A stretch of 64,000 bases of DNA, taken from a virus. Lineage: Duplodnaviria; Heunggongvirae; Uroviricota; Caudoviricetes. A program made the position numbers and the translations under genes. The notes under the pieces were generated by a model. It worked only from the letters and a program-made list of their open reading frames with translations. It searched no databases and had not been told where the DNA came from. Numbering within the stretch: the first letter of the stretch is position 1; every line of letters begins with the position of its first letter. Below, piece by piece: positions 3,757 through 48,961 of this stretch. Location of the stretch: the IMG/VR virus record IMGVR_UViG_2872147552_000001; one strand, written 5' to 3'.

Positions 3757-4644
3757 TTACTTAAGTCCAATTTTCCCCAGACCGGAGGCCAACTTATCCA
3801 TAGTCGACTTGTTCTTCGGTTGGGATATTGTGTAGGTCGATTTGGAATGTGAGCCTACACCCTGCTTGGCTTCGCTACGCATCAATGCGTCAGCTTCCGG
3901 ATCTGCCCGCACAATGCGTTCAATCGCGGATTCAAACGGCAACGGCTTACCTTCACCGTCAACCAGAACAGCTCGTTCTTTGTGACCTGCCGGTTTGTCA
4001 TAACCCACTACGCTACCGTCTTCACCAACTTCAAAATGAGAACCGTAGATCACGCGGGCTTTTGCCGGGGTCATCAGAACTTTGTCACGTAGGAAGAGAG
4101 AGTTACTGAAGGAAGCGCCCACGGTCATCTCGACTAATTGAGATTTCAGTGATGCGTTTTCACTTTCCAGTGCTGCATAACGTTCGTCACGCTGTGCCAG
4201 CTCTGCCTGGTGTGCTTCGATCATCTGTTTTTTAACAGCATCGAACTCACCACGACGCTCCAGTTCAGCTTGCTCCGCCTCACGACGTGCGTTTTCTGCG
4301 GCCTGTTCAGCTTCTAAAAGCTGGCGAGCACGAGCCGGATCGATATCACCGTACTGAGCAAGCTGATCGGCCAATGTGCGCTCTTTCTCTTTGCGCTTCA
4401 TGTTCTCCTTCAGCAGTTCAGCACCAGCTTTCTTGGTTTTACGAAGTTCGGCCAGTAACTCTTCCTGAGTCATGCCAGCGTATTCGTCATCGCCCTTCGG
4501 CTGCTCTTTTTGTTCACCCTGTTTGTCAGGATCTTGTGTACTCTGCTCATTATCAGCAGCTACACCGCCAGCGCCTCCACGCTCATGCGCTTCAGCGACA
4601 TCCATCAGACCACGACGGGCCAAAAGCATTTGCCACAGATTCAT
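3757..4644 (-). CDS. scaffolding protein (coiled-coil, E/A/K/R/Q-rich)
   Basis: 295-aa highly charged helical sequence (ELLAELRKTKKAGAELLKENMKRKEKE...) between portal and capsid genes; AAGGAA RBS. Confidence 0.5.
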   Translation of the reverse strand: MNLWQMLLARRGLMDVAEAHERGGAGGVAADNEQSTQDPDKQGEQKEQPKGDDEYAGMTQEELLAELRKTKKAGAELLKENMKRKEKERTLADQLAQYGDIDPARARQLLEAEQAAENARREAEQAELERRGEFDAVKKQMIEAHQAELAQRDERYAALESENASLKSQLVEMTVGASFSNSLFLRDKVLMTPAKARVIYGSHFEVGEDGSVVGYDKPAGHKERAVLVDGEGKPLPFESAIERIVRADPEADALMRSEAKQGVGSHSKSTYTISQPKNKSTMDKLASGLGKIGLK

Positions 4645-18743: not shown

Positions 18744-18860
18744 GATGGTTTCCTTATTAAGTTGCTTCAGTGAAATCATTTTCACAAATCAGATAAGGCA
18801 GAAAACAAATTGTTATCGGGCATAAGAAAATGGCGCGGTTTACGCGCCATTTAAAGAGGA

Positions 18861-22820: not shown

Positions 22821-22892
22821 TCCGAAACAATTTGTTTTCTTATGTGGTTTATTATCTCCATCAACAAAAGGCAGAAAACAAATTGTTTTAGG
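22821..22892 (-). promoter_or_regulatory. complete early promoter module (two AAACAA-N-TTGTTT palindromes flanking GATAAT)
   Basis: Best-preserved copy of the module; the host-like insert begins immediately upstream. Confidence 0.5.
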
Positions 22893-22972: not shown

Positions 22973-25006
22973 TTACTTAACCTGGTGGCCAGGTTTAGCA
23001 CCAGCATCCGGGCTTAACAGGAAGATATCTTTCCCGCCGGGGCCAGCAGCCATCACCATGCCTTCAGAGATACCGAAGCGCATTTTACGTGGTGCCAGGT
23101 TAGCCACCATAATGGTGTGACGACCAATCAGTGCCTGTGGATCTGGATAAGCGGAACGGATGCCTGAGAAGACATTACGCTTTTCACCACCGAGATCCAG
23201 CGTCAGGCGAAGCAGTTTGTCAGAACCTTCTACAAACTCTGCGTTTTCAATCAGCGCCACGCGCAGGTCAACTTTGGCGAAGTCGTCAAAGGTGATAGTT
23301 TCCTGAATCGGGTCGTCAGCCAGTGGGCCAGTTACCGGTGCGGCTGTGGCTTTCACTTCTTCTTTGGATGCTTCCACCAGTGCTTCAACCTGCTTCATAT
23401 CGATGCGGTTATACAGTGCCTTGAACGGATTTACTTTATGGCCCAGCAGCGGTTGCTGGATACCATCCCAGGTCAGTTCTGTATTCAGGAATGCTTCTGC
23501 ACGTTCAGTCAGTTTCGGCAGTACCGGCTTCAGGTACGTCATCAGCACGCGGAACAGGTTAATGCCCATAGAGCAAATCGCCTGCAGATCGGCATCGCGA
23601 CCTTCCTGCTTCGCCACCACCCACGGAGCCTGTTCATCGACATAGCGGTTAGCCAGGTCAGCCAATGCCATGATTTCACGGATAGCTTTACCAAATTCGC
23701 GGCTTTCCCATGCTTCGCCAATCACTTCAGCGGCATCAGTAAAGGTTTTGTACAGTTGCGGGTCAGCCAGTTCGCTTGCCAGCACGCCGTCAAAACGCTT
23801 GTTTATAAAGCCTGCATTACGGGAGGCCAGGTTAACCACTTTGTTCACGATATCGGCATTCACGCGCTGAACGAAATCCTCCAGGTTGAGATCGATATCA
23901 TCAATGCGCGAAGAGAGTTTCGCAGTGTAGTAGTAACGCAGGCTGTCGGCGTCAAAATGATTCAGCCAGGTGCTGGCTTTAATAAAGGTGCCGCGAGACT
24001 TGGACATCTTCGCGCCGTTCACCGTCACATAGCCGTGAACAAACAGGTTGGTCGGCTTGCGGAAGTTGCTGCCTTCCAGCATGGCAGGCCAGAACAGGCT
24101 GTGGAAGTAAACAATATCTTTACCGATGAAGTGGTACAGCTCGGCGGTGGAGTCTTTCTTCCAGTATTCATCGAAGCTGGTGGTATCGCCGCGCTTGTCG
24201 CACAGATTCTTGAAGGAACCCATGTAGCCAATCGGCGCGTCCAGCCAGACGTAGAAATATTTGCCCGGCGCGTCCGGAATTTCAAAACCGAAGTAAGGCG
24301 CATCGCGGGAGATATCCCACTGTTGCAGGCCGGATTCAAACCATTCCTGCATTTTGTTCGCCACCTGCTCCTGCAACGCGCCGCTGCGGGTCCATGCCTG
24401 CAACATTTCGCTGAAAGAAGGCAGATCAAAGAAGAAGTGTTCGGAATCACGCATTACCGGGGTAGCGCCAGAAACCACCGATTTCGGCTCGATCAATTCA
24501 GTCGGGCTATATGTTGCGCCGCAGACTTCACAGTTATCGCCGTATTGATCTGGCGCTTTACATTTCGGGCAGGTGCCTTTTACAAAACGATCCGGCAGGA
24601 ACATGCCTTTTTCCGGGTCGTACAACTGAGAGATAGTGCGGTTTTTAATAAAACCGTTCTCTTTCAGGCGAGTATAGATAAGCTCAGACAACTGACGGTT
24701 CTCTTCGCTGTGCGTCGAGTGATAGTTGTCATAGCTGATGTTAAAGCCTGCGAAATCAGTCTGGTGTTCCTGACTCATTTCGCCAATCATCTGCTCCGGT
24801 GTGATACCAAGCTGCTGCGCTTTCAGCATGATCGGCGTACCGTGGGCATCGTCGGCACAGATGAAATTAACCTCGTGGCCGCGCATTCGCTGGTAACGAA
24901 CCCAGACATCAGCCTGGATGTGCTCCAGCATATGGCCGAGGTGGATTGAGCCGTTAGCGTACGGCAGCGCGCACGTCACCAGAATTTTCTTCGCGACTTG
25001 GGTCAT
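22973..25006 (-). CDS. metG: methionyl-tRNA synthetase (chromosomal-type, near-identical to E. coli MetG as recalled)
   Basis: 677-aa product from [26 protein letters not shown] with HIGH and KMSKS motifs and the C-terminal tRNA-binding domain; track ORF extends 43 codons upstream of the true ATG at 25006; own hairpin terminator at 22931-22957. Confidence 0.95.
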
Positions 25007-25163
25007 AGTAGGCATTACTTCTTTGTAGTGAAAAGGGGCTTGATAGTAACAAAATGGCCTTATGTCTGCCATGTGATAACAGCATTTCTCATAAATGATT
25101 AAATGTCGTAGCTGGAGTACACTACAAGGCGACAATTGCGCAAATTAAAATAAAGGAGACGGG

Positions 25164-26264
25164 ATGAGCGAGTCCAAATCGCCGGATGCCCTGAGAGCAA
25201 TGGTAGCCGGTACGCTGGCTAATTTTCAGCACCCAACCCTGAAACACAACCTGACTACGCTTAAAGCGTTACACCATGTTGCGTTGATGGATGACACACT
25301 GCATGTCGAACTAATCATGCCTTTCGTGTGGAATAAGCCTTTTGAAGACCTGAAAGAGCAATGTAGTGGTGATCTGCTCCGTATCACTGGCGCAAAGGCT
25401 ATTGACTGGAAGCTGTCGTACAACATTGCCACGCTTAAGCGCGTCAAAAACCAACCAGGCATTAATGGCGTTAAGAACATTATCGCCGTCAGCTCAGGCA
25501 AGGGCGGCGTGGGTAAATCCTCCACGGCGGTAAACCTGGCACTGGCGTTGGCTGCTGAAGGTGCGAAAGTTGGTATTTTGGATGCCGATATCTATGGTCC
25601 ATCAATTCCAACCATGCTGGGTGCGGAAAACCAACGTCCAACCTCACCTGACGGTACTCACATGGCACCTATCATGTCTCATGGCCTGGCAACCAACTCT
25701 ATTGGTTATCTGGTCACCGACGACAATGCAATGGTGTGGCGTGGACCGATGGCCAGCAAGGCGCTGATGCAGATGTTGCAGGAAACTCTATGGCCTGATC
25801 TGGACTATCTCGTTCTCGATATGCCGCCGGGCACTGGTGATATTCAGTTGACGCTGGCGCAGAACATTCCTGTAACTGGTGCGGTTGTGGTAACTACGCC
25901 GCAAGACATCGCGCTGATCGATGCGAAGAAAGGCATTGTGATGTTCGAAAAAGTCGAAGTGCCGGTACTGGGTATCGTCGAAAACATGAGTGTGCATATT
26001 TGCAGTAACTGCGGTCATCACGAGCCAATTTTTGGCACCGGTGGCGCACAGAAACTGGCCGAGAAATACAACACGCAGTTGTTAGGCCAAATGCCACTTC
26101 ATATCTCTCTTCGTGAAGATCTGGATAACGGAACACCAACCGTTATTAGTCGTCCAGATAGCGAATTTACGGCTATTTATCGTGACCTCGCAGATCGCGT
26201 TGCCGCCCAAATGTATTGGCAAGGTGAAGTAATACCTGGCGAAATCGCATTCCGCGCAGTGTGA
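25164..26264 (+). CDS. apbC: Fe-S cluster carrier ATPase ApbC/Mrp
   Basis: 366-aa product with deviant Walker A SSGKGGVGKSSTAVNLA and CxxC motif (ICSNCGHHEPIFG); divergent from metG exactly as in the enterobacterial chromosome; AAAGGAGA RBS. Confidence 0.95.
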   Translation: MSESKSPDALRAMVAGTLANFQHPTLKHNLTTLKALHHVALMDDTLHVELIMPFVWNKPFEDLKEQCSGDLLRITGAKAIDWKLSYNIATLKRVKNQPGINGVKNIIAVSSGKGGVGKSSTAVNLALALAAEGAKVGILDADIYGPSIPTMLGAENQRPTSPDGTHMAPIMSHGLATNSIGYLVTDDNAMVWRGPMASKALMQMLQETLWPDLDYLVLDMPPGTGDIQLTLAQNIPVTGAVVVTTPQDIALIDAKKGIVMFEKVEVPVLGIVENMSVHICSNCGHHEPIFGTGGAQKLAEKYNTQLLGQMPLHISLREDLDNGTPTVISRPDSEFTAIYRDLADRVAAQMYWQGEVIPGEIAFRAV

Positions 26265-26727: not shown

Positions 26728-26784
26728 TACATGAAAGAAGCTCACTCAGTGCAACTGATCGGTACATAGCACCAGACAAAGGAA

Positions 26785-26847
26785 CGTTATTTTCTCGAAC
26801 AAGAAAAGGTAGAAAACAAATTGTTTAAGGCCACAACTAGTGGCCTT
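26785..26847 (-). promoter_or_regulatory. truncated early promoter module plus terminator hairpin AAGGCCACAACTAGTGGCCTT
   Basis: Near-identical to the unit at 31041-31120 down to GTTATTTTC at about 26786, where similarity stops. Confidence 0.5.
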
Positions 26848-26863
26848 AATGGAGAAGGGATGC

Positions 26864-29432: not shown

Positions 29433-29851
29433 CGTGCTGCCCCCTCTTTGGTGAAAATGCCTGCTGCAATGCTGTTTATGATGCTGTCAGTGCATGGAGT
29501 AGAAAGCTGGGCATCTCCAGCAATTTTCATGACCTCAACATCCGCATATCGAATACCGAGGTGTATCAGACCGGCTATACCTGACTTAAGTCGAACATTT
29601 TCCATAAACAGATCCTTTTCCCGCTGTTTAACGGTCTCCAGCTCAACACGCAACTTCTCAATTTCGGCAGCCATGTAGTAACCAACCATAGCGAAAGTGG
29701 CGAAAGGGTAGTCCGAATCATCAGGAGATACGGAGGCCATTAGCAGACCATCGTGCATGTTCTGGCTTCCATCAGTGATAGATACCGCATAAGAATCGCT
29801 GGTTTCCCGCTTATACAATACGACGACCGGGTTCTTGATTTTCTCTCTCAT
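29429..29851 (-). CDS. hypothetical protein
   Basis: 140-aa ORF in operon context. Confidence 0.35.
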   Translation of the reverse strand: MREKIKNPVVVLYKRETSDSYAVSITDGSQNMHDGLLMASVSPDDSDYPFATFAMVGYYMAAEIEKLRVELETVKQREKDLFMENVRLKSGIAGLIHLGIRYADVEVMKIAGDAQLSTPCTDSIINSIAAGIFTKEGAAR

Positions 29852-30405
29852 TACGATGCCTCTAACTTGTCTAACTCTTTCAGCCCTTCACGTACCGCGT
29901 TCACAATGCGTTCCAGATACTGGTATTTCGGGTTTGGTACCGTTGGCCAGTCGGCATACCACGGATCATCACCAAAGAGATTCAGTAGTTTGTTACCGAC
30001 GCCGAAACAGCAGCAGCTTTCTTTTACGTCATCGGCGTTTTCCGCCTCGTCCCACATTTCGCGAGCCAGTACGGCGTCTATTTCTCTCTCTCTTCGTAAC
30101 TTTATGATTTCTGACTTCACGAAAAGCAGATTTGCATCGTTGTCATCGTCGACCGTGCTTCGCAGTTGAGGGTCGAAATAGCCGATTAGATACTCGTTGC
30201 TGACCCGCTTAATGAACGTCTGCACATCATCACCGCCCATAGCAAACCAAGCCGCAGTCCACGCTTTTCCGTAGCAGGTGATGGTGATTCTTCCCTTACC
30301 AGGTTCGTAGTTTTCAATCATCACTCGAACCGGATCGAGGCGTTCCAGATCCGTCAGCACAAAGGAAAGAACATCTATTTTTTCGATCTTCATGCAGCCT
30401 CCCAC
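29851..30405 (-). CDS. hypothetical protein
   Basis: 184-aa ORF in operon context. Confidence 0.35.
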   Translation of the reverse strand: MGGCMKIEKIDVLSFVLTDLERLDPVRVMIENYEPGKGRITITCYGKAWTAAWFAMGGDDVQTFIKRVSNEYLIGYFDPQLRSTVDDDNDANLLFVKSEIIKLRREREIDAVLAREMWDEAENADDVKESCCCFGVGNKLLNLFGDDPWYADWPTVPNPKYQYLERIVNAVREGLKELDKLEAS

Positions 30406-31031
30406 GCGCTCCAGATCAGCGATTTGTGTTTTTCATAACGTTTGATGTGTACCGGTTTCAGAAGCGCAATACCTTCAGTGACTTTCGCCATTGCGCTTAA
30501 TAACAACGGGTGTTCTATACCTATCCTCTCCATGTACTCGACAACATCAGCGTTGGCACCAATCTCCTTCCCGTTAAAAAGTACGTCCAGCATCAGCTCT
30601 TTCTCTGCAAGGTAGATAGCTGAAAACTCAGGATCGCGACTCACGATAGAAGAGGTATTGTCGAGCAGGTCAGCCAGCTTGATCATGCGCGTCTGCATGT
30701 CGAGATTTTGCTCCAGCTCCCGGACATTGATGATGAAACGCTGTATTCGATTGCCGTCTTCTGGCCTTGCAATGTTGGTCAGAGCCTGAACCATTTCAGC
30801 TACGCGCTCACCGAAGTGATCACGAACCATCTCTATGGTTACATGGGTGTCTTCGACCACATCATGCAGAAGCGCCGCGATTTGCATCTCCACGGTTCCG
30901 TCATGCAATGCAACAATCTCTCGGACAGCAACCGGGTGGTTGATGTAGTCTTCGCCGGTATATTTTCTTTTCTGACCAACGCCACCATGAGCGCCAGCGG
31001 CGAACATATGAGCTTCGGAAATACTAGACAT
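30390..31031 (-). CDS. HD-domain small alarmone hydrolase (SpoT/Mesh1-type (p)ppGpp hydrolase domain)
   Basis: Motifs HPVAV, AALLHDVVEDT, FGERVAEMVQALT and IKLADLLDN match the RelA/SpoT hydrolase domain; 213 aa with no synthetase domain. Confidence 0.75.
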   Translation of the reverse strand: MSSISEAHMFAAGAHGGVGQKRKYTGEDYINHPVAVREIVALHDGTVEMQIAALLHDVVEDTHVTIEMVRDHFGERVAEMVQALTNIARPEDGNRIQRFIINVRELEQNLDMQTRMIKLADLLDNTSSIVSRDPEFSAIYLAEKELMLDVLFNGKEIGANADVVEYMERIGIEHPLLLSAMAKVTEGIALLKPVHIKRYEKHKSLIWSAWEAA

Positions 31032-31040
31032 TCTTAACTC

Positions 31041-31120
31041 CGTTGTTTTCTAGTTGTGGTTATTTTCACAAATAAGAAAAGGTAGAAAACAATTTATTTA
31101 AGGCCACAACTTATGGCCTT
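31041..31120 (-). promoter_or_regulatory. early promoter/operator module plus terminator hairpin AAGGCCACAACTTATGGCCTT
   Basis: Hairpin, inverted TTGTTTTCT/AGAAAACAA elements and -10-like sequence upstream of the HD hydrolase start. Confidence 0.45.
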
Positions 31121-31150: not shown

Positions 31151-31531
31151 CTAATTGCCGGATAAAATGGGGTGAGGTGCTTGCCAGTAGGCTCCACCGG
31201 TCCATGTGAACCCCATGCGAATAAGAGTGTTTATTGCGGCTTTGGTAGACTCCGATTCGACACTGGCTTTTCGAAACTCTTGAACCTCTTTCGCCAACTT
31301 GTATGTAATTGTGCAGGGGACGATTGCAGCCCAGCCTTTCTCATGACTGTTAATGACCATCTGGATGTGACCATCCAGAATAGGTTGATTAGGCATGTTA
31401 TTGAAAATGTCTGCCTGTTTTTGAATGTGAAGAAAAAGCCTTGCCAGCTCCATTTGCTCACTACGAGACAAGGGATTATCAAGAGGGCTTTTTGCAAAAG
31501 CGGCTATACGCTGTGCGTCAATGCCAAACAT
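31151..31531 (-). CDS. hypothetical protein
   Basis: 126-aa ORF. Confidence 0.35.
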   Translation of the reverse strand: MFGIDAQRIAAFAKSPLDNPLSRSEQMELARLFLHIQKQADIFNNMPNQPILDGHIQMVINSHEKGWAAIVPCTITYKLAKEVQEFRKASVESESTKAAINTLIRMGFTWTGGAYWQAPHPILSGN

Positions 31532-32235
31532 CAGCGCACCTCACCATCTTTATGGCTGGAGTTAACTTCCGCCATTAAATGTCTGACGTAATCGACAAGA
31601 GAGCCGCCTGGTGGAATCTGGCATTCCTCAACTAACTGGAAGTAGATATCCGCTGCATTACGTGTATTGCTACCCGCGCATATTCTTTCTTCCCGAAGTG
31701 CATGAAGCTCGTTGATCAAACGGTCACACTCTCCGTTACGCTGATCCACAACGGCCTCAAGCTCTGCGACGCGTTCACCTGGCGTCTTACCTTCTTTGCG
31801 TTGGATGGTAACGACGAAATCGCCAATTGCAGGGACGTTGTAATCCAGCTCAAGGTAGTTTTTGGCACCGCTGCGGACGAACTCACCCGCGAACATGGTG
31901 GCGAACATCGCAGAGGCCACTTCGCCGTTGAAAAGTGACTCCAGATCTAACGGAGTCCCGGCATCAAGAGCCTCTTTTGCTGTATCCATTGCATCCATGA
32001 ACCGATCAAACTCATTGGCGCGCTTTTCCAGGTTTTTCCATTGCTCGCTCCAACGTTTGGCAACGAAGTCTATGAATGTTTTCGCGGATTCATCAAAATT
32101 CCCCTCAAACTTAACGATGCCTTTATCAATAATGATCTGGCCTACCGCATCCTCTGCATAACCTTTCAATGTAAACTTGAAAGGAAAATCGGAATGGCCT
32201 GTGACGTTAAAATGCTCTAACTGGAGGTTGCTCAT
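31531..32235 (-). CDS. hypothetical protein
   Basis: 234-aa ORF; palindromic motif 32277-32297 upstream. Confidence 0.4.
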   Translation of the reverse strand: MSNLQLEHFNVTGHSDFPFKFTLKGYAEDAVGQIIIDKGIVKFEGNFDESAKTFIDFVAKRWSEQWKNLEKRANEFDRFMDAMDTAKEALDAGTPLDLESLFNGEVASAMFATMFAGEFVRSGAKNYLELDYNVPAIGDFVVTIQRKEGKTPGERVAELEAVVDQRNGECDRLINELHALREERICAGSNTRNAADIYFQLVEECQIPPGGSLVDYVRHLMAEVNSSHKDGEVR

Positions 32236-32295: not shown

Positions 32296-33981
32296 TCATT
32301 TAACGCGTTTGAAAACGTATACGCTGACTGTGATCCCTGTGTCTTCAAACTCGTTGGTAAACGACTTCCCTCTGGCATAAACGTAATTATCCATCGTCAT
32401 CCAGTCCAGTATTGGCGCAGTGCCCGGCAATACTGCTACAAGACGCCCGCCGACTTTCAGATGCCCCAGCGCAGCCAGCGTGTGCTCTCTATGACGACCA
32501 AGCGAGTACGGCGGGTTCATAACGATTTTGTCGAACTGATAACCTACGTTGTCCTCAGACCACTTTATGAAGTCGCAGCAAATCGTGTTCGTATACCCTT
32601 TTCCGCGCAGGATATCAGCGAAGAGAGGTGCGATTTCTATGCAGGTAACATCTTCCAGATCGGCGTTAATATAGGCCAGAAGATCCCCACGTCCGGCTTG
32701 AGGCTCCAGCAGCTTCTCACCAGGCTTCAATTCAGTGGCTCTGGCAACGTACTCAGCAATCAAGCGTGGGGTAGGGTAGAACTGGTGTGATTTTGTATCC
32801 GGTATTAAACCGGTAGCCACAATCGTATTTAGCGTATGGACGATGTCATACGGGAACTGCCAGTGCTTTTTCTCCTGCACGCCGCCAATGAAGCTCAGTG
32901 TGCGCTCAAGCTCTTCCACCTGCGACTTCTGGAGAGCTGAATCAGAGAAGTACCATACGCCTTTGTCTTTGCTCAATCGCCCGTCACGAAGCGCAGTGCG
33001 AACCGGCACGGAGATCGTCTTCTGGATTAACCCGAACTGCTTTGGTGCCCGTGTTTTTGGCGCGGTGCGACATGGCGCGGGGATTGCAGCAGGCATACTG
33101 TAAGCCAGCACCTCATTCAACTTCCAGGCCACGTCAGGATGTATTTCAAAGTGAACGTTGCCGTTCTTGAACATCTTCACGCGCATCAGATTTCCATCGA
33201 CGTTCATCCAGTCACCGGTCTGGCAGTCGTTTGCCCGATACGCAGCTGATAGCACCTCAGCAGTGCGGTTGATGGTAATAAATTCTTTGTGCGCGAAGAA
33301 ATGAAGCAAGACACGCAGATCGTCGATGTAGTCCTCTTTGCGATAGTTCACGCTAACGCTGTCCCGCCAGAAATCAGAAATGCAGTCAGCGATTATCAGC
33401 CGCTCGCTGAAACCGTTTGTCTTATTTGTCTTGTGCGCAGGACTCAGCGCCTTAAACAAGCCATACACGCGCTCAGAGAGATATTTGTGCCTGTCATTCA
33501 GCAAATTAAGCATCGTGGGTATGACCGTTTCTGCTTTGAACTCCGGTACACCAACGAACTCTTTAACCTTCATCTGGTAGCCGGTTCTGTCAGTTTTGAT
33601 GACTTCCTGTTTGCCCTCTATAAACTGCTCGCGCCACTCATCTCGACGGGAAGCTGGCATGATCAGCAAAACGTTAGTCATGTCCGTGACCTTCCTCCAG
33701 TACTCGGCCCAAATATTCTGTTTCACCCATTCCAGATCGACTTTATCCAACCAACCTCGATTTAAACGCGAGCGATCTTCATCTGGTCGATGGTTTAGTC
33801 TCAGCAGGCGATTAATCATGTTGTGGCGTTCGTCGCCATAAACGAAGTCGTGTACCTGATACATGAAGGCGATCTCTTTCTCGCACTCGGCCACAATTTC
33901 GTGGATGACGTTCATTTCCTGCCGATAGTCGATAGCAGTGTTTGAGTTGGCATCGTCGATGATGGAAAGGGCTGTATTCAT
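32296..33981 (-). CDS. DNA N6-adenine (or N4-cytosine) methyltransferase fused to a ~380-aa N-terminal domain of unknown function
   Basis: C-terminal motif I (LEPQAGRGDLL) then motif IV (NPPYS) in gamma-class order; no recognisable motifs in the N-terminal 380 aa. Confidence 0.6.
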   Translation of the reverse strand: MNTALSIIDDANSNTAIDYRQEMNVIHEIVAECEKEIAFMYQVHDFVYGDERHNMINRLLRLNHRPDEDRSRLNRGWLDKVDLEWVKQNIWAEYWRKVTDMTNVLLIMPASRRDEWREQFIEGKQEVIKTDRTGYQMKVKEFVGVPEFKAETVIPTMLNLLNDRHKYLSERVYGLFKALSPAHKTNKTNGFSERLIIADCISDFWRDSVSVNYRKEDYIDDLRVLLHFFAHKEFITINRTAEVLSAAYRANDCQTGDWMNVDGNLMRVKMFKNGNVHFEIHPDVAWKLNEVLAYSMPAAIPAPCRTAPKTRAPKQFGLIQKTISVPVRTALRDGRLSKDKGVWYFSDSALQKSQVEELERTLSFIGGVQEKKHWQFPYDIVHTLNTIVATGLIPDTKSHQFYPTPRLIAEYVARATELKPGEKLLEPQAGRGDLLAYINADLEDVTCIEIAPLFADILRGKGYTNTICCDFIKWSEDNVGYQFDKIVMNPPYSLGRHREHTLAALGHLKVGGRLVAVLPGTAPILDWMTMDNYVYARGKSFTNEFEDTGITVSVYVFKRVK

Positions 33982-41649: not shown

Positions 41650-42294
41650 CTAATGAACGGTCACTCGGCCACAGAACCGGTTTTCTATCTTTTCTACAGC
41701 GTTATCTAGCATTCTCATCACTGATCTGGCTCTTGCTTCAACCGTGCGATATCGGTTGGAAACGACGAAGGTTTGCAGATCCCCCCTTTGCGGATGCAGG
41801 TGAATTTTTGTCAGTTCCCCGCACATCAACGCATCAATACGAGCGACATACAGACGGTCTAATGATGCTCGTTGTGATCGCAAGTAATCTCGCTCTGAGA
41901 GAGCGACTCCCGGGCGTAGGCCAGCAATGGCGTTAAAGTTTGAAATAGCAGTTTTGTGGCAAAACTTTTCGATATCGAGGGCTAACTCAATACACCGATC
42001 TTCATTTGTATGGCCGACCAAATCCAACGTGTAGGCCATAACATCAGCAGGTGTGCGATCGATAACAAAGCCTTCAACACCACGTGTAAGTAGCTCTATA
42101 TGCTTTGCTATTTCCATTTGAATCTGAAGCCGCTCATATAGAGGCATAGACTCACCTACTCGAACACCGAGGCGGCTCATCAAACTTCCGACACCAGCAT
42201 CCACGTAAGGGATTCCGTAATGTTTGTCGATATATTTAGCCAGGGTTGTTTTCCCACTGCCCTGAGCACCAGTGATCCCAATCCGGTAATCCAT
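41650..42294 (-). CDS. P-loop nucleotide kinase (possible dNMP/thymidylate-type kinase)
   Basis: Walker A GITGAQGSGKTTLAKYI at N-terminus, DRT segment resembling the kinase DRY/DRX motif; embedded among nucleotide-metabolism genes. Confidence 0.5.
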   Translation of the reverse strand: MDYRIGITGAQGSGKTTLAKYIDKHYGIPYVDAGVGSLMSRLGVRVGESMPLYERLQIQMEIAKHIELLTRGVEGFVIDRTPADVMAYTLDLVGHTNEDRCIELALDIEKFCHKTAISNFNAIAGLRPGVALSERDYLRSQRASLDRLYVARIDALMCGELTKIHLHPQRGDLQTFVVSNRYRTVEARARSVMRMLDNAVEKIENRFCGRVTVH

Positions 42295-42770
42295 TACGAC
42301 CTTCTGTATACGATCTGCGAAAAGCCAGGCTCTTCCTCGCTGGCTCGTTGGGTAAAAACTGTTTCAACAGGCACAAAGCCTAAATTACGCATCATGCTTG
42401 CCGGGAAGAATGCATCGGCGTTTGGCACATCAACGCCGATGTGGGAGAGCCAAATCTCTTCAACATGCGGCATGAATAGCGAGTAAATTTGTTCCCCGCC
42501 AATCACCCACACAGGCTCTGGTAATCGCAACACATCATCCACACCAGCAGGGTAGAATCCATTTGGTACAAAGCCATGAGAGCGCGTCAAAACGAGGTTA
42601 TGACGCTCTGGAAGAGGGCGTTTGAGACTTTCCATCGTTTTACGCCCCATAACGACAGTGGCGTTTTTGGTGAGTCTCTTAAATAGCTTCAGATCGGTAG
42701 AACAACGCCAGGGGAGTTCATTCGCTATGCCGATCTCATAGTTACGGCCAACAGCAGCGATCATCTTCAT
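42294..42770 (-). CDS. dihydrofolate reductase
   Basis: MKMIAAVGRNYEIGIANELPW... with the DHFR-type N-terminal M-I-A-A and GRKT motifs; 158 aa. Confidence 0.8.
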   Translation of the reverse strand: MKMIAAVGRNYEIGIANELPWRCSTDLKLFKRLTKNATVVMGRKTMESLKRPLPERHNLVLTRSHGFVPNGFYPAGVDDVLRLPEPVWVIGGEQIYSLFMPHVEEIWLSHIGVDVPNADAFFPASMMRNLGFVPVETVFTQRASEEEPGFSQIVYRRS

Positions 42771-43180
42771 TTGCTCACCTCATAGATGACCGGTCGATGG
42801 TGAGAGTCGGCTAAAGCGGCACGGAGTCGAGGATCGTGCACCAGCGCAGCGATAAGCAGATCGCCTTTATGCTCCGCTAATGTGCGCTTAATATGCTTCT
42901 CATAACTGGTGCCATTCGGTACGAGATGAAGCCAGTCATAATCAACGCCAAAATCTTTCAGCCATCGTTTAGTTGGCGCTTCAAGAGTTTCAGAGCGGCT
43001 ACTGATAAGCACCACTTCAGCCCCTGAGCGAGCAAAACCACGCAACATACGGCTGGTGGGGAAAATGAGTTCATCACCGGCAATGAGCTGGCCTGCATCC
43101 GCGTCAGATACTGATTTACGATGGCTGGCATTTGCCAGCACACCTTCAATTTCGCATAAGACATACATACCTCTTGCCAT
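42767..43180 (-). CDS. hypothetical protein (possible degenerate HAD-type phosphatase)
   Basis: Track ORF trimmed to internal ATG at 43180 to avoid a 110-nt overlap with the thymidylate synthase gene. Confidence 0.3.
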   Translation of the reverse strand: MARGMYVLCEIEGVLANASHRKSVSDADAGQLIAGDELIFPTSRMLRGFARSGAEVVLISSRSETLEAPTKRWLKDFGVDYDWLHLVPNGTSYEKHIKRTLAEHKGDLLIAALVHDPRLRAALADSHHRPVIYEVSK

Positions 43181-43181
43181 A

Positions 43182-44285
43182 TCACACCGCCACTGGAACC
43201 TTGATCCACGGAAGAGTGCTGTAGCCGCACACCTGCACACCTTCCCATTTGAAGTCGTCCAGTTCGGCCCATTCATGCGGGAAGATGACAACCGGGTCGG
43301 ACTCTTTGGGCGGCTCGCGCTTCATCAGTTCCTCAACGCCTTCCATGTGGTTGTTGTACAAATGCACGTCAAAGCCAAAATGCACGAATGCGCCAGCCAT
43401 GTGGCCGGTGATCTTCGCGAGGAAGTGGGTGAGAATGCCGTAACCGGCGATGTTGAACGGCATACCAACAAAGGTATCGACACTGCGTTGAACCAGGCAT
43501 GAGTTCAGAATGCGTTTCGGGATGCCCAGCTCGTCCAGCATGTTCTCAGTAATGCCGCCATCTCTTTCCAGAAGACACAGCATCTGGGTGTAAATGGACT
43601 CGTGGCCGTGGCGGTTGTGCTGTATACCAATGTCAGTTGCCATCGTTAAACGGGTTTCAAAATCCAGCTCACGACTCCACAAAGAGAAGACAAAGTGGCA
43701 AGGTGGCAGTTTCATATCCTCAAGCTCGCCTACGTTCCATGCGTTAAGCATGATGCGACGATCGGTAGGGTTCGTGCGCAGTGTATCGACAATACGCTGT
43801 AGCTGATCGATTTCACGGGACAGCACTACGCGATCTTCACTGATACCCAGGTATCCCTCGACTCTGTACCCGCGTTCACGGAAAGTAGCGATCTTGCTCA
43901 GATATTCACTATGGCTCACGATGCGGGTATCTTCCCATCGACGCCACTGCTTACCGTAAACCGGCCCCAAATCGCCATTCTCATCGGCCCATGCATCCCA
44001 AATCTTAACGCCGTTATCCTTGAGAAATTGGATGTTGCCCGTGCCTTTCAGATACCACTCAAGTTCGACAAGCAGTGGCTTAAGATTTACCGCCTTTCCA
44101 GAAATAAGCGGCACAGTCCCACCAGTAAGCATGTAATAAGAGGGAACGTAGCAGGTGCTTAAAGTACCAGTGCCTGTGCGATCATCAGCCTGCACGCCGC
44201 TTTTAAGCACCGTCTCAATAACTTTTGCATACGATGCGTTTGTTACCTGACCGTTCGTATGCTCTCGATTCAAAAGGAGTGACAC
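43182..44285 (-). CDS. thymidylate synthase family enzyme with ~100-aa internal insertion
   Basis: DDRTGTGT, LGPVYGKQWR, RRIMLNAW...LPPCHFVF and QRSVD...MPFNIAGY match ThyA active-site motifs; 367 aa versus about 264-290 for typical enzymes; GTG start. Confidence 0.7.
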   Translation of the reverse strand: MSLLLNREHTNGQVTNASYAKVIETVLKSGVQADDRTGTGTLSTCYVPSYYMLTGGTVPLISGKAVNLKPLLVELEWYLKGTGNIQFLKDNGVKIWDAWADENGDLGPVYGKQWRRWEDTRIVSHSEYLSKIATFRERGYRVEGYLGISEDRVVLSREIDQLQRIVDTLRTNPTDRRIMLNAWNVGELEDMKLPPCHFVFSLWSRELDFETRLTMATDIGIQHNRHGHESIYTQMLCLLERDGGITENMLDELGIPKRILNSCLVQRSVDTFVGMPFNIAGYGILTHFLAKITGHMAGAFVHFGFDVHLYNNHMEGVEELMKREPPKESDPVVIFPHEWAELDDFKWEGVQVCGYSTLPWIKVPVAV

Positions 44286-44455
44286 AAAAACCTCACAAAG
44301 ATAAGTAATTACTTATTCATCATGTGAGTTTACATTCATTGAGAGAACAAGACCAGACAGATAAAAAAATGGTGGCCATAGGCCACCAAAACGAATAGTC
44401 ATTCCAGAGTTTTATTACGCATGTTAAATATACATAGATAGATAACTACCTACAA

Positions 44456-45325
44456 TTATTTTTTGATCATTCCGTACATTGCTGAGGCTTTAGCTTGCTC
44501 AACAAAGGAGGATAAATCGACATCACTATAGGTTGGAGACTTCAGAATCTTTCCATCGGAAATTCGAAAACCGATCATCTTATCGGTGCCATCAGCATGG
44601 CGGAATCCCAGATCTGAAGAGTCGTATTTGCAGTTGGCCACAGCCTGGCGACGTTCCTCAACATCAGCAGGCCATAATTTTGTCATGTTAGACCGATGAA
44701 TTTCGCCAACCAGCTCGACGACATTGATACCGAGGAAATCAGCCAGTCGATAAGTCATCATGCACGCCACATAGATTTTGTTCATTACACGGCGCAGTTC
44801 CTGAATCAGCTCAGAATCCTTAACAGCCTTCTTCTCAAGTTTATCTGCCAGCTCTTCGAGCATACATGACGCCTCACGAGCTTCCTGAAATGGCATTGCC
44901 ATATCATCGAAAACAGTGTTACCAGGCACAAAAATTGTCTGCATAAAGCGATCAATGCTCTGTTCCTGCGTGTAATAGGTCATGCCGGTAGAAATACCAC
45001 CTTTGATGGCGACCATCGTACCAACACCAACGTATAAAAAGTCGGCCATTGCATCCAGCAGTTGCTCAATATCCCCATTCATTGCAGCTGGAATACCTTC
45101 CACTACAGCTTCTTCATGAATCAGGCTTGCACGGAGACGAAGCAGCTCTGGTGTCGGCATAACGCGTCTCGGATGCTGGAAGAGTTCATGAAACTGATCG
45201 ACCATCTTGTAAATACTTTCAGTGGCTACACCATGGCCTTCATGCAACTCATATGGTTCTGGCTTAAATCCAATGAGTCGATCGGTGGCAAGTTTCAGGT
45301 GGTCAGTCAGTTTGGTAAAGTTCAT
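44456..45325 (-). CDS. hypothetical protein (possible all-alpha NTP pyrophosphohydrolase)
   Basis: 289-aa helical protein with E/D-rich segments between thyA-like and nrdB; assignment weak. Confidence 0.3.
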   Translation of the reverse strand: MNFTKLTDHLKLATDRLIGFKPEPYELHEGHGVATESIYKMVDQFHELFQHPRRVMPTPELLRLRASLIHEEAVVEGIPAAMNGDIEQLLDAMADFLYVGVGTMVAIKGGISTGMTYYTQEQSIDRFMQTIFVPGNTVFDDMAMPFQEAREASCMLEELADKLEKKAVKDSELIQELRRVMNKIYVACMMTYRLADFLGINVVELVGEIHRSNMTKLWPADVEERRQAVANCKYDSSDLGFRHADGTDKMIGFRISDGKILKSPTYSDVDLSSFVEQAKASAMYGMIKK

Positions 45326-45402
45326 GCTAGTTTTGTTCCTTCTTAATTCTTGTGATCCATTGTGGCCCAGCGTTGCCAGGCCACATAATGCTTTGTATCG
45401 GT

Positions 45403-46545
45403 TTACAGGTCTGCAAACTGGCTTAGAGAAGCCTTATCCACGGTAGAATCGATCTGACCTACCAGATATGTGCTTTGCTCTGCCTCTTGTGGTGCAATTT
45501 GCAGTGTGTCGGTTAACAACCACTTGTTCATCCAGACCAGCGGATCGGTGGTAACCTCTGGAAATAAAGCCTTCAGGCCAAGACGATTCATAGCCAGATT
45601 GGTGCGGTATTTTACATAGGTTTTGAGAATATCCGCGTTTAAACCAATCATCGAACCGTCTTTGAAGAGATAGTCTGCCCAGTTCATTTCTTGTTCGGCG
45701 ACTGATTTCATGGTGTCGTAAATGACGTTTTCTTCATCAGCAGCAATCTCTTTCCACAATAAACCTTCGCGACCGGTACGCATGAAGCGGATCATGCGTT
45801 CAGTTCCTTCGCAATGCAGAGCTTCATCACGGGCAATAAAGCGCATAATTTTGGTGTTACCCTCAAGCAACTTCCGTTCGCCAAAGGCAAACGTACATGC
45901 AAAACTTACATAGAAACGGATCGCCTCAAGCGCATTAATGGACACCAACGTGCGGAAAAGCTGACGGTGCAAAGGGTATGGCTCCCAGCCATATTCATTT
46001 ACGTACAGACGTTCAAACTCTTTCTCACCTAACGACTGGCGCTCGCAGGTCATCCCATAAAGCCTGTCATATTCAGCAGAGATACTGATCGCTCGGTTGA
46101 TGATTTCTTCATCCGTAACAATACCGTCAAAAACAATACTCGGATCGTCCACCATGCCACGAATAATGTGGGTGTAGCTGCGGCTATGGATAGTCTCAGA
46201 GAAAGACCACGTTTCAACCCACGTTTCCAGTTCAGGAATAGAGATAAGCGGCAGCAGAGTTGCGTTTGGGCTACGTCCCTGAACTGAATCGAGCAACGTT
46301 TGATAACGGAGATTACTCAGGAAAATGTGGCGTTCGTGGTCCCGCAGCTTCGTATTGAAGTCGATGCGATCGCTCGAAATATCAACTTCTTCCGGCCGCC
46401 AGAAGAAAGACAATTGACGTTCAATCAACTTTTCAAAATCACGGTATTTTTGTTGATCGTAACGTGCCACGTTGACAGATTGTCCGAGGAACATAGGCTC
46501 TTTGGTTGCATCATTAGCACCCAAACGGAACGTTGAATATGACAT
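45403..46545 (-). CDS. nrdB: ribonucleotide reductase class Ia beta subunit
   Basis: 380 aa with the di-iron/tyrosyl-radical region ([23 protein letters not shown]...) and C-terminal tail; AAAGGAAAAACAC RBS. Confidence 0.85.
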
Positions 46546-46645
46546 GTGTTTTTCCTTTTTTGATGTGTTTAAACAAGTTGTTATCTTATGTGTTTAAACA
46601 AGGCTTACAAATCAAAGATAAGGTGGGGATATACCCCACCATATG

Positions 46646-48961
46646 TCAGATTTTGCAGGCTCCGTCGCACTCATCTTCTGGCTCGACGGCTACAGCTTGC
46701 GTCAGTGGATTCTGCGCTTCGTCGTCATCACGCTTTCCTGCCCCATCTCTGGTGTTGTGGTAGTAAAGCGTTTTAACTCCCATCTTGTAGGCGAGAAGCA
46801 AATCTGACAGTAGCGTCATCATTGGGACTTTATCGCCTTCAAAGCGAGAAGGGTCATAGTTGGTATTGGCTGAAATAGCCTGGTCAAAGAACTTCTGGAT
46901 GATCGCCACCTTTGTCAGATAGCCGCGGTTGTCCGGCATATCCCACAGGTATTCATACTGTTCCTTCAGTTTTTCAAACTCAGGCACGACCATCTTAACG
47001 ATGCCGTCCTTAGAAGATTTCACCGACACCGGTCCACGAGGCGGTTCGATGCCGTTGGTGGAATTAGTGATCTGGCTGGAAGTCTCGCATGGCATTTGTG
47101 CCGTCAGTGTGGAGTTGCGAAGGCCGTATTTTGCAATACGTTCACGCAGTTCTTCCCACGGCATCTTTAACTCAAAGTTGGTTTCGCCGCTTTCGTCTAA
47201 TGAAGAACGGTAATGGTCGATCGGCAACTGACCAATTGCGTACTTGGTCTGCTCAAACCAGTCACACTCACCTTTTGCTTCAGCAAGTCGGCAGCTGGCA
47301 TCAAGAAGGTAATACTGGATAGCTTCGAACGTTTCATGCACCAGTTTATTGCCAGCGGTATCAGAATAACGAACGCCATTCTTTGCCAGGTAATAAGCAA
47401 AGTTGGTTACACCAATTCCCAAGCTACGACGAGCTTTGGCAGGCACTTCGGCTGCCTCCATCGGATAGTCTTGATAATCCAGTAACGAATCCAGTGCAGC
47501 AACGGCATAGAACGCCACCTCTTTAAGAGACTCCAGTGAACGGATGGCTCCGAGGTTAAAAGCGGATAAAGTGCATAGCGCGATCTCACCGTTCGGGTCG
47601 TCGGTAAATGCCAGTGGACGAGTGGGTAGAGTGATCTCCATGCACAGGTTTGACTGGCGGACAGGTGCAAGAGCAGGAATGAAAGCGCCATGCTCATTAA
47701 TATGATCGACGTTCGCAATATAAATTCGGCCCGTGGACGCTCGTTCCTGCATCAGAGATGAGAACAGCTCAATGGCAGGTACTGACTTCTTGCGAATTGA
47801 ATCATCGGCTTCGTATTTATGGTACAGCTTTTCAAACAGATCCTGGTCTGTGAAGAAGGCTTCGTACATATCAGGCACATCATGCGGGCTGAACAGAGTG
47901 ATGTTCTCGCTTCTGACGAGTCGACGGTACATTAGACGGTTACTCATGACGCCGTAATCAAGATGGCGAACGCGGTTTTCATCAATACCACGGTTATTTT
48001 TCACCACCAGCAGACTTTCAACTTCAAGATGCCAGATCGGGTAAAACGCTGTTGCTGCGCCACCACGAACACCACCTTGCGAACAAGATTTAACAGCCGT
48101 CTGGAAATGCTTCAGGAATGGAATAACTCCGGTATGGGTGGCTTCACCATTGCGGATCTCGCTGCCCAGCGCACGGATACGGCCAAAACCAATACCAATT
48201 CCAGCACGACGTGAAACGTAGTCGATAATTGCGGCTGAAGCTGCACTAATCCCTTTCAGACTATCGCCAGACTCAATCAGCACACAACTGGAGAACTGAC
48301 GGGTTGGAGTACGGACGCCAGCCATGATTGGTGTGGGCAGAGACAGTTTGAACGTACTTGTAACGTCATAGAAACCTTTGACCATCTCCATACGTGTTTT
48401 GCCCGCGCAGTCGTCTTCCCAATTCTGGAACAGACACATGCCCACCAGCATATAGATATGTTGCGGGCCTTCGTGAATCTCACCAGTAACACGGTTTTGA
48501 ACGAGGTATTTGCTTTGCAACTGCACCGTAGCTGCATAGCCAAAAAGATCGTCACGTTTAGGCTTAATGTAATTGCCGAGTTCTTCGATCTCTTCAAATG
48601 AATAATGTGTCAGCAAATCCTTGTCATAAACGCCCTTGTTAACGTTCTTGACAATGTGTTGGTAGAAGTTCGGATAGTCGTAACGACCGAAGGCATCTTT
48701 GCGGATTTTAAAAATGTTCAGGCGGGCAGCCACCTGCGAGTAATTTGGTGCATCTGGTGAGATCAAATCAGCGGCAGATTTAACCAAAGCCTCATGCAAC
48801 TGGCTGGTGGTAATCCCATCAAAAATGCTGGCCGCAGCTCCCATTGCTACAGCGGATGCGCTTACGCCACGAATGCCTTCTACGCCATACATTACGACGC
48901 GGTTGTATTTTTCTTCGGATAACGGCTCTGTTTGGCCGTTACGTTTTACGATGCTTATCAT
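46646..48961 (-). CDS. nrdA: ribonucleotide reductase class Ia alpha subunit
   Basis: 771 aa, N-terminal ATP-cone, catalytic core, C-terminal redox cysteines CDGACKI; no intein. Confidence 0.9.
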   Translation of the reverse strand: MISIVKRNGQTEPLSEEKYNRVVMYGVEGIRGVSASAVAMGAAASIFDGITTSQLHEALVKSAADLISPDAPNYSQVAARLNIFKIRKDAFGRYDYPNFYQHIVKNVNKGVYDKDLLTHYSFEEIEELGNYIKPKRDDLFGYAATVQLQSKYLVQNRVTGEIHEGPQHIYMLVGMCLFQNWEDDCAGKTRMEMVKGFYDVTSTFKLSLPTPIMAGVRTPTRQFSSCVLIESGDSLKGISAASAAIIDYVSRRAGIGIGFGRIRALGSEIRNGEATHTGVIPFLKHFQTAVKSCSQGGVRGGAATAFYPIWHLEVESLLVVKNNRGIDENRVRHLDYGVMSNRLMYRRLVRSENITLFSPHDVPDMYEAFFTDQDLFEKLYHKYEADDSIRKKSVPAIELFSSLMQERASTGRIYIANVDHINEHGAFIPALAPVRQSNLCMEITLPTRPLAFTDDPNGEIALCTLSAFNLGAIRSLESLKEVAFYAVAALDSLLDYQDYPMEAAEVPAKARRSLGIGVTNFAYYLAKNGVRYSDTAGNKLVHETFEAIQYYLLDASCRLAEAKGECDWFEQTKYAIGQLPIDHYRSSLDESGETNFELKMPWEELRERIAKYGLRNSTLTAQMPCETSSQITNSTNGIEPPRGPVSVKSSKDGIVKMVVPEFEKLKEQYEYLWDMPDNRGYLTKVAIIQKFFDQAISANTNYDPSRFEGDKVPMMTLLSDLLLAYKMGVKTLYYHNTRDGAGKRDDDEAQNPLTQAVAVEPEDECDGACKI

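Follow-up and report, generated by a model that had tools for sequence, protein, structure and literature searches.

PaSpo of Salmonella phage SSU5 is the experimentally characterised counterpart of the protein described here. Co-expressed in E. coli, SSU5 PaSpo neutralises all five toxSAS tested, namely CapRel, PhRel, PhRel2, FaRel2 and FaRel (Jimmy et al. 2020, PNAS; PMC7229694). Laboratories that produce CapRel-SJ46, PhRel2 or FaRel2 as proteins have since relied routinely on PaSpo to detoxify them; for FaRel2, leaky expression of PaSpo already brings neutralisation. The protein family, its phage-plasmid member and the toxSAS-neutralising phenotype have been known since 2020, and PaSpo is a laboratory tool. 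Two other small alarmone hydrolases (SAHs), ATfaRel from the FaRel module of Cellulomonas marina and PbcSpo from Salmonella phage PVP-SE1, the latter of another SAH subfamily than PaSpo, likewise neutralise all tested toxSAS, and do so by hydrolysis and not by toxin binding. [quoted passage not shown] The tRNA 3'-pyrophosphate is stripped in vitro by MESH1 and by ATfaRel, and pyrophosphorylated tRNA treated in vitro with ATfaRel can be aminoacylated again. CapRel systems are active against phages in prophages of Salmonella and E. coli and in Enterobacter, which is the same host range as that of the element treated here. Jimmy et al. proposed that incoming phages bypass toxSAS defence by encoding alarmone hydrolases (PMC7229694).

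The window analysed is the whole 64,000-nucleotide stretch of IMG/VR record IMGVR_UViG_2872147552_000001, assigned to the Caudoviricetes. An earlier note, made from its letters alone, had described a 213-aa stand-alone SpoT-type HD hydrolase at 30390-31031, with which the element may erase host alarmone signalling or counter alarmone-based defence. That idea is a rediscovery of a published, experimentally characterised protein. The window protein and SSU5_099 (YP_006906731) are 88% identical (187/213 residues, full length, no gaps). SSU5_099, named 'putative guanosine polyphosphate pyrophospho hydrolase/synthetase' in GenBank, is the sole locus in the SSU5 genome similar to the window protein (counted as one place per record), and it was taken as the tested PaSpo because SSU5 has only one RSH locus. 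Judged by closeness and synteny to the SSU5 member, and not by the authors' subfamily HMMs, the window protein can be placed in the PaSpo subfamily of the Jimmy et al. 2020 classification.

Both proteins are 213 aa long, with all catalytic residues identical. Both genes also lie in the same position within one family of phage-plasmids, downstream of a DUF4942 methyltransferase, Ead/Eaa-like genes and a shared intergenic repeat, and in both cases the 180-aa gene comes next. The two proteins differ through 26 substitutions, of which the C-terminal 73 residues hold 18, and in host, E. coli for the window element versus Salmonella for SSU5. Relative to the SSU5 orthologue, dN/dS is 0.18 for the whole gene, which is under purifying selection; the C-terminal part (aa 141-213, 0.25) evolves faster than the core (aa 1-140, 0.10). 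A pseudogene or relic reading of the window copy was ruled out by the intact motifs and the dN/dS of 0.18.

Phage-plasmid and gene neighbourhood

The DNA surrounding the hydrolase gene shares 98-99% identity with non-mobilisable E. coli plasmids of about 110 kb; with Salmonella phage SSU5 the figure is about 86%. The near-identical plasmids encode capsid, portal, terminase and tail proteins together with ParB-type partition, replication, NrdAB, ThyA, DHFR and DnaE. On account of this identity to E. coli plasmids and SSU5, and of the phage and plasmid genes that these carry, the window represents part of an SSU5-like phage-plasmid of E. coli. The hydrolase gene belongs to an extended series of small early-type genes on the minus strand, whose features are given below in transcription order.

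33981-32296, minus strand: orphan DUF4942 DNA methyltransferase, first in transcription order, matching Type II methyltransferase models in PADLOC
Minus strand, after the methyltransferase: 234-aa Ead/Ea22-like gene
Minus strand, after the Ead/Ea22-like gene and before the intergenic element 31059-31120: 126-aa Eaa-like gene
31059..31120, minus strand: intergenic repeat directly 5' of the hydrolase gene, made up of a GC-rich hairpin (31100-31120) and, after it, a T-rich 40-mer that is conserved
31038..31041, minus strand: GGAG ribosome-binding site, 6 nt 5' of the hydrolase ATG, by direct reading of the sequence
30390..31031, minus strand: coding sequence of the small alarmone hydrolase, PaSpo orthologue, an ATG-started open reading frame of 213 aa (end coordinate including the stop codon)
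29851..30393, minus strand: 180-aa gene (phrog_3451) directly 3' of the hydrolase gene, its start overlapping the hydrolase stop (ATGA)
Minus strand, 3' of the 180-aa gene: five genes of 140, 61, 217 (DUF551), 127 and 271 aa
Minus strand, beyond the 271-aa gene: primase-like fragment, then the second copy of the intergenic repeat at 26780-26855

Further copies of the intergenic repeat are found at 26780-26855 and 22849-22888, and the element is conserved 5' of the SSU5 hydrolase gene and at the corresponding junction of phage Cyrano. The hairpin at 31100-31120 is listed as terminator-like, and the repeat may function as a terminator/promoter module. A search for a consensus sigma-70 promoter 5' of the hydrolase gene on its own strand was negative, and scanning of the window for tRNAs and Rfam RNAs returned nothing.

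The 180-aa gene is labelled 'phiTE_072 family' in one RefSeq record, and searches of Pfam, PDB and PADLOC with its product gave no match. In E. coli and Salmonella elements this gene and the hydrolase gene are present or absent together, both occurring in SSU5 and neither in Cyrano. In Klebsiella SSU5-like elements a hydrolase homologue of 52-58% identity is encoded directly upstream of the methyltransferase among other small neighbours. The 180-aa gene is not beside the hydrolase gene in these Klebsiella loci and was ruled out as a family-wide partner. When the hydrolase and its neighbours were compared with the PADLOC defence models, no match was obtained apart from that of the DUF4942 methyltransferase to the Type II methyltransferase models.

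Adjacent to the hydrolase gene there is no RSH synthetase-type toxin, and the neighbouring genes are devoid of a RelA_SpoT domain. Nor is any RSH synthetase annotated in the full 109-kb plasmid of 99% identity, in the SSU5 locus or in the Klebsiella loci, and for this reason the hydrolase gene is regarded as standing alone and not as a local toxSAS antitoxin. The adjacent synthetase toxin that defines toxSAS toxin-antitoxin modules is absent from the window locus, and in this it differs from ATfaRel, which is encoded beside its own toxin. A role as antitoxin of a toxSAS encoded in cis was ruled out, no synthetase being found among the neighbours with Pfam, PHROG, PDB or PADLOC or annotated in the near-identical plasmid. 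One alternative makes the hydrolase a counterpart of Cellulomonas marina ATfaRel, the antitoxin of a toxSAS module that the element would itself carry; in its favour, some SAHs are type IV antitoxins, and the hydrolase is translationally coupled to the 180-aa gene through the ATGA overlap. Such a module is nevertheless improbable in the extreme: the 180-aa protein matches neither RelA_SpoT nor anything else in Pfam, PDB or PADLOC and is missing from the Klebsiella loci, the 99%-identical plasmid has no annotated RSH synthetase, and the hydrolase gene has been lost from many plasmids, a loss that would kill any host in which a cognate toxin remained.

Hydrolase domain, catalytic site and fold

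The earlier note had picked out three RelA/SpoT hydrolase motifs and a lack of any synthetase domain, and both observations hold. The motifs align with those of SpoT, Rel and MESH1 as follows.

30924..30938, minus strand: HPVAV, aa 32-36, aligned with the 'HP' of SpoT, Rel and MESH1
30846..30878, minus strand: AALLHDVVEDT, aa 52-62, aligned with LLHDxxEDT of SpoT, Rel and MESH1
30657..30683, minus strand: IKLADLLDN, aa 117-125, aligned with KLADRxxN of SpoT, Rel and MESH1

Pfam HD_4 matched aa 8-135 with 67.5 bits, the curated cut-off being 27.2 (E=1.4e-18), and Pfam HD matched with E=6.4e-6. The NCBIfam profile TIGR00691 (spoT_relA, E=1.4e-24) was matched over positions 1-123 of 687 only, which is its hydrolase part, and PHROG 990, 'metal-dependent phosphohydrolase', was matched with E=8e-55. 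All 22 of the 22 PDB sequence matches are Rel/SpoT hydrolase domains, MESH1 or SAHs. Going by these profile and sequence matches, the likeness to RelA/SpoT hydrolases lies far above chance. Neither a synthetase domain (RelA_SpoT, PF04607) nor regulatory domains were detected in the 213-aa protein with the Pfam and NCBIfam profiles. With 213 aa the protein is in any case too small for a synthetase domain, and residues 140-213 are predicted to be helical and to continue the HD fold. The long RSH enzymes SpoT and Rel share the same hydrolase domain family (HD_4; TIGR00691 positions 1-123) and catalytic motifs with the window protein, which differs from them in being without synthetase, TGS and ACT/RRM regulatory domains.

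A family alignment of 37 sequences, which was also the basis of the AlphaFold2 model, contains the following invariant residues: R22, Y24, T25, Y29, H32, P33, H56, E60, D61, T62, R98, K118, D121, N125 and E143. K23 and D57 are kept in at least 90% of the aligned sequences, and at D57 only the degenerate allele P0009 departs from the rest. The metal ligands (H...HD...D), the catalytic ED dyad and the substrate-contacting RK and N residues align with those of SpoT, Rel and MESH1. H32, the first of the histidines that bind the metal, corresponds to H53 in RelSeq and to H35 in MESH1. From the RelSeq and MESH1 structures, H56-D57 is presumed to be the metal-binding dyad, E60-D61 the catalytic dyad and D121 a further metal ligand, and R22 and K23 (RK) and N125 are presumed to contact the substrate. 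The window protein keeps R22, K23, H32, H56, D57, E60, D61, K118, D121 and N125, and all catalytic and metal-binding residues are intact; loss of the metal-binding HD residues on alignment, which the earlier note had named as the finding that would speak against a hydrolase, is not observed, H32, H56, D57 and D121 all being retained.

The AlphaFold2 model (mean pLDDT 96.5, pTM 0.92) consists of twelve helices, and the whole chain forms one helical domain. All 50 of the top 50 Foldseek matches of this model in the PDB are RSH hydrolases with a probability of 1.00. They include human and fly MESH1, a Pseudomonas aeruginosa SAH, Corynebacterium glutamicum RelH and the L. levettii SAH, and further the B. 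caccae (p)ppApp hydrolase and the hydrolase domains of Rel and SpoT. The hydrolase is thus predicted by the model to adopt the all-helical SAH/MESH1 fold. MESH1 (human HDDC3, Drosophila CG11900) and the SAHs 6YVC (P. aeruginosa), 7QOD (C. glutamicum RelH) and 7QOE (L. levettii) have the single-domain all-helical HD fold and the metal-binding and catalytic motifs in common with the window protein (Foldseek probability 1.00; target-normalised TM of about 0.75). They are only 20-28% identical to it, however, and the window protein is longer by some 30-35 residues and has a C-terminal insert and tail specific to the phage-plasmid members. On every count of sequence and structure the 213-aa protein is a genuine stand-alone, single-domain RSH-type hydrolase, that is, an SAH; Pfam, NCBIfam and PDB matches, the 37-sequence alignment and Foldseek agree with the SpoT-type assignment of the earlier note.

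MESH1 is the best structural match, and its PDB entries include complexes with NADPH and PAPS; human MESH1 is also an NADPH phosphatase, as has been published. A different substrate might accordingly be imagined, with the hydrolase acting as a MESH1-like NADPH phosphatase or otherwise in nucleotide or cofactor metabolism alongside NrdAB, ThyA and DHFR, and with no link to alarmones or defence. Many nucleotide-metabolism genes are indeed present on the element, but the hydrolase gene lies outside their cluster and the demonstrated phenotype of the PaSpo orthologue is toxSAS neutralisation, which leaves this alternative very unlikely.

The C-terminal part of the protein sets the phage-plasmid members apart from shorter homologues.

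30390..30584, minus strand: C-terminal extension, approximately aa 150-213, comprising the insert KEIGANADVVEYMERIGIEHP and a basic terminal helix

In the 37-sequence alignment the insert of about 20 residues and the basic terminal helix occur only in the phage-plasmid-type members of about 200-216 aa, while homologues of 165-190 aa are without them. AlphaFold2 models the extension as helices H161-170, H175-189 and H193-212 with pLDDT above 93.

Distribution, loss and decay

A 100%-identical copy of the hydrolase gene is present on the complete E. coli plasmid NZ_JBYMFS010000003.1. A survey of 5,426 complete E. coli genomes gave a match in 44, at full length in 36 of these, and every match lies on a plasmid, not on a chromosome. 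In PLSDB the neighbouring methyltransferase was found in 860 plasmids (211 from E. coli, 49 from Salmonella) and the hydrolase gene, by DNA search, in 205 (55 from E. coli, 42 from Salmonella); Klebsiella counts from PLSDB are not comparable with these, the genes being too divergent for a DNA search. The hydrolase gene thus occurs in about one quarter of the E. coli SSU5-like plasmids (55 versus 211 with the methyltransferase) but in most of the Salmonella ones. At least 248 phage records contain an SAH homologue, and the phages concerned vary widely in kind, with jumbo phages represented.

The E. coli phages Cyrano, CMS-2020a and PhiR41_1 match the window only from 31057 onward. By alignment, the Cyrano locus is without 29851-31057, which holds the hydrolase gene and the 180-aa gene, and the missing block stops at the intergenic repeat; the repeat at 31059..31120 marks a boundary of the variable region. 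On plasmid pM160133_p3 just the first 43 nt of the hydrolase gene are left, beside an IS1 remnant. Public protein clusters include a 139-aa truncation of the hydrolase on 139 contigs, two fusions in which the N-terminus is replaced and H32 and the HD dyad are gone, and one allele in which HD is changed to HG. The hydrolase gene is accessory and dispensable; the early region that holds it is variable, and related plasmids have repeatedly lost the gene or kept it in truncated form. This dispensability and the repeated deletion, truncation and fusion were counted against a role of the hydrolase as an antidote to defence toxins.

Proposed role of the hydrolase

The window protein is a PaSpo-subfamily SAH encoded without a partner toxin in an SSU5-like phage-plasmid, and it most likely serves as a broad antidote to toxSAS defence toxins. 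The orphan DNA methyltransferase encoded close by is another typical anti-defence function and was counted in favour of this reading. [quoted passage not shown] With the hydrolase the phage-plasmid would most likely survive abortive infection by toxSAS, for example by the capsid-sensing CapRel of enterobacterial prophages, and as a secondary effect host alarmone levels may be held low. Through either effect, translation would keep running while the element establishes itself or replicates.

Besides (p)ppApp and (p)ppGpp, pyrophosphorylated tRNA is probably a relevant substrate, because four of the five toxins that are neutralised, including the enterobacterial anti-phage CapRel, pyrophosphorylate the tRNA 3'-CCA end and make no alarmones. 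The suggestion of the earlier note that the element erases alarmones or counters defence matches in its outline the published neutralisation by PaSpo and the proposal of Jimmy et al.; its wording 'alarmone-based' fits in part, as the chemistry of the defence is largely tRNA pyrophosphorylation. The in vitro data on tRNA dephosphorylation come from MESH1 and ATfaRel and not from PaSpo, a point that was counted against the antidote reading. A literature search for a phage SAH acting as counter-defence during infection found none.

The same catalytic site would also permit takeover of the host, in which the hydrolase mainly degrades the (p)ppGpp made by RelA and SpoT and so suppresses the stringent response, with toxSAS neutralisation as a side effect. 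The site is that of (p)ppGpp hydrolases, and the closest structures are those of MESH1 and Rel/SpoT. Phage infection can be held back by the stringent response, and there are other phages that stop (p)ppGpp from being made (bioRxiv 10.64898/2026.01.27.700999); RelA and SpoT are also known to come under attack from phages in other ways, and Jimmy et al. mention a build-up of alarmones on infection (PMC7229694). The spread of SAH homologues over such varied phages, jumbo phages among them, points in the same direction. The functional data on PaSpo found in the literature concern toxSAS rescue, though, and four of those toxins make no alarmone, so that as the main function host takeover appears rather unlikely. 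Suppression of the stringent response is plausible beside the antidote role, with which it is compatible and which it does not exclude.

Within the antidote reading, a more specific and distinctly tentative idea concerns the C-terminal extension of about 60 residues, which could adapt the hydrolase to a macromolecular substrate, the CCA end of pyrophosphorylated tRNA. PaSpo would then be a dedicated tRNA-repair counter-defence enzyme directed against CapRel-type immunity, carried as a gain-and-loss cassette in a repeat-bounded anti-defence region, and the patchy distribution of the gene would mirror the toxSAS that host populations carry.

The natural variants with and without the gene, together with the independent deletions, could help to test counter-defence by phage SAHs against hosts that carry CapRel.

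Gene neighbourhood of the hydrolase

The PaSpo orthologue, a stand-alone RelA/SpoT-type hydrolase, is followed by a gene that is translationally coupled to it through an ATGA overlap.

29851-30393 (-): 180-aa protein, no assigned function; belongs to phrog_3451 and is named 'phiTE_072 family' by a single RefSeq record

The two genes are gained and lost together among the E. coli and Salmonella elements. The 180-aa protein had no matches in Pfam, PDB or PADLOC. It aligns with the C-terminal portion of phrog_3451, and the N-terminal portion of that profile matches a 234-aa Ead/Ea22-like protein (31531-32235). The arrangement in Klebsiella phage-plasmids is different: there, the DUF4942 methyltransferase gene lies directly downstream of the PaSpo-like gene, which is translationally coupled to a 64-aa ORF upstream.

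L007-L009 (Klebsiella SSU5-like contigs), 4001-4639: PaSpo-like gene, 52-58% identical

Other Enterobacteriaceae plasmids hold PaSpo alleles in decayed or chimeric form. Among the related protein clusters, P0009 carries HG in place of the HD dyad and P0011 is a truncated form of 139 aa found on 139 contigs, while P0012 has an Ea22-like N-terminus fused on. P0010 lacks both H32 and the HD dyad; its N-terminus is that of an AAA-ATPase, P-loop included, joined on at the EDT motif. In plasmid pM160133_p3 (L010, 2371-2543) an IS1-associated deletion has reduced the hydrolase gene to its first 43 nt.

Repeated intergenic element

In the early region, a repeated intergenic element of approximately 62-76 bp lies between gene modules. 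Cyrano lacks a block comprising PaSpo and the 180-aa gene, and on the upstream side this missing block ends at the element.

Window, 26780-26855, 31059-31120 and 22849-22888: repeated element
Window, near 18795, 20187 and 35624: partial matches
SSU5 (L001), 1465-1510, 2187-2222 and 4183-4246: repeated element
Cyrano (L002), 4003-4067: repeated element

The element contains a GC-rich hairpin, AAGGCCAC-N5-GTGGCCTT (2 copies, versus 0.04 expected by chance), followed by the conserved T-rich 40-mer AACAATTTGTTTTCTACCTTTTCTTATTTGTGAAAATAAC. A search against the Rfam families gave no matches. The element could be a terminator/promoter module, an operator module or a recombination hotspot.

Other cargo genes and the orphan methyltransferase

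The metG and ApbC-like calls in the window follow the way NZ_LR882992, a near-identical plasmid, is annotated, and the nucleotide-metabolism genes were putatively assigned by gene size and order against the same annotation.

22973-25135 (-): full-length methionyl-tRNA synthetase (metG)
25164-26264 (+): ApbC-like iron-sulfur carrier gene
42294-48961 (-): putative nucleotide-metabolism cluster
42294-42770 (-): putative DHFR
43182-44285 (-): putative thymidylate synthase
45403-46545 (-): putative NrdB
46646-48961 (-): putative NrdA

The presence of a second MetRS and a putative tRNA-repairing hydrolase on one element is a curious pairing.

32296-33981 (-): orphan DNA methyltransferase, 561 aa, N-terminal DUF4942 domain

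In PADLOC, the C-terminal part of this methyltransferase matches models for Type II methyltransferases as well as for mad2. The genes nearby include no restriction partner. Among SSU5-like plasmids the methyltransferase (860 PLSDB records) is far more common than the hydrolase gene, and it probably serves to shield the element's own DNA against restriction.
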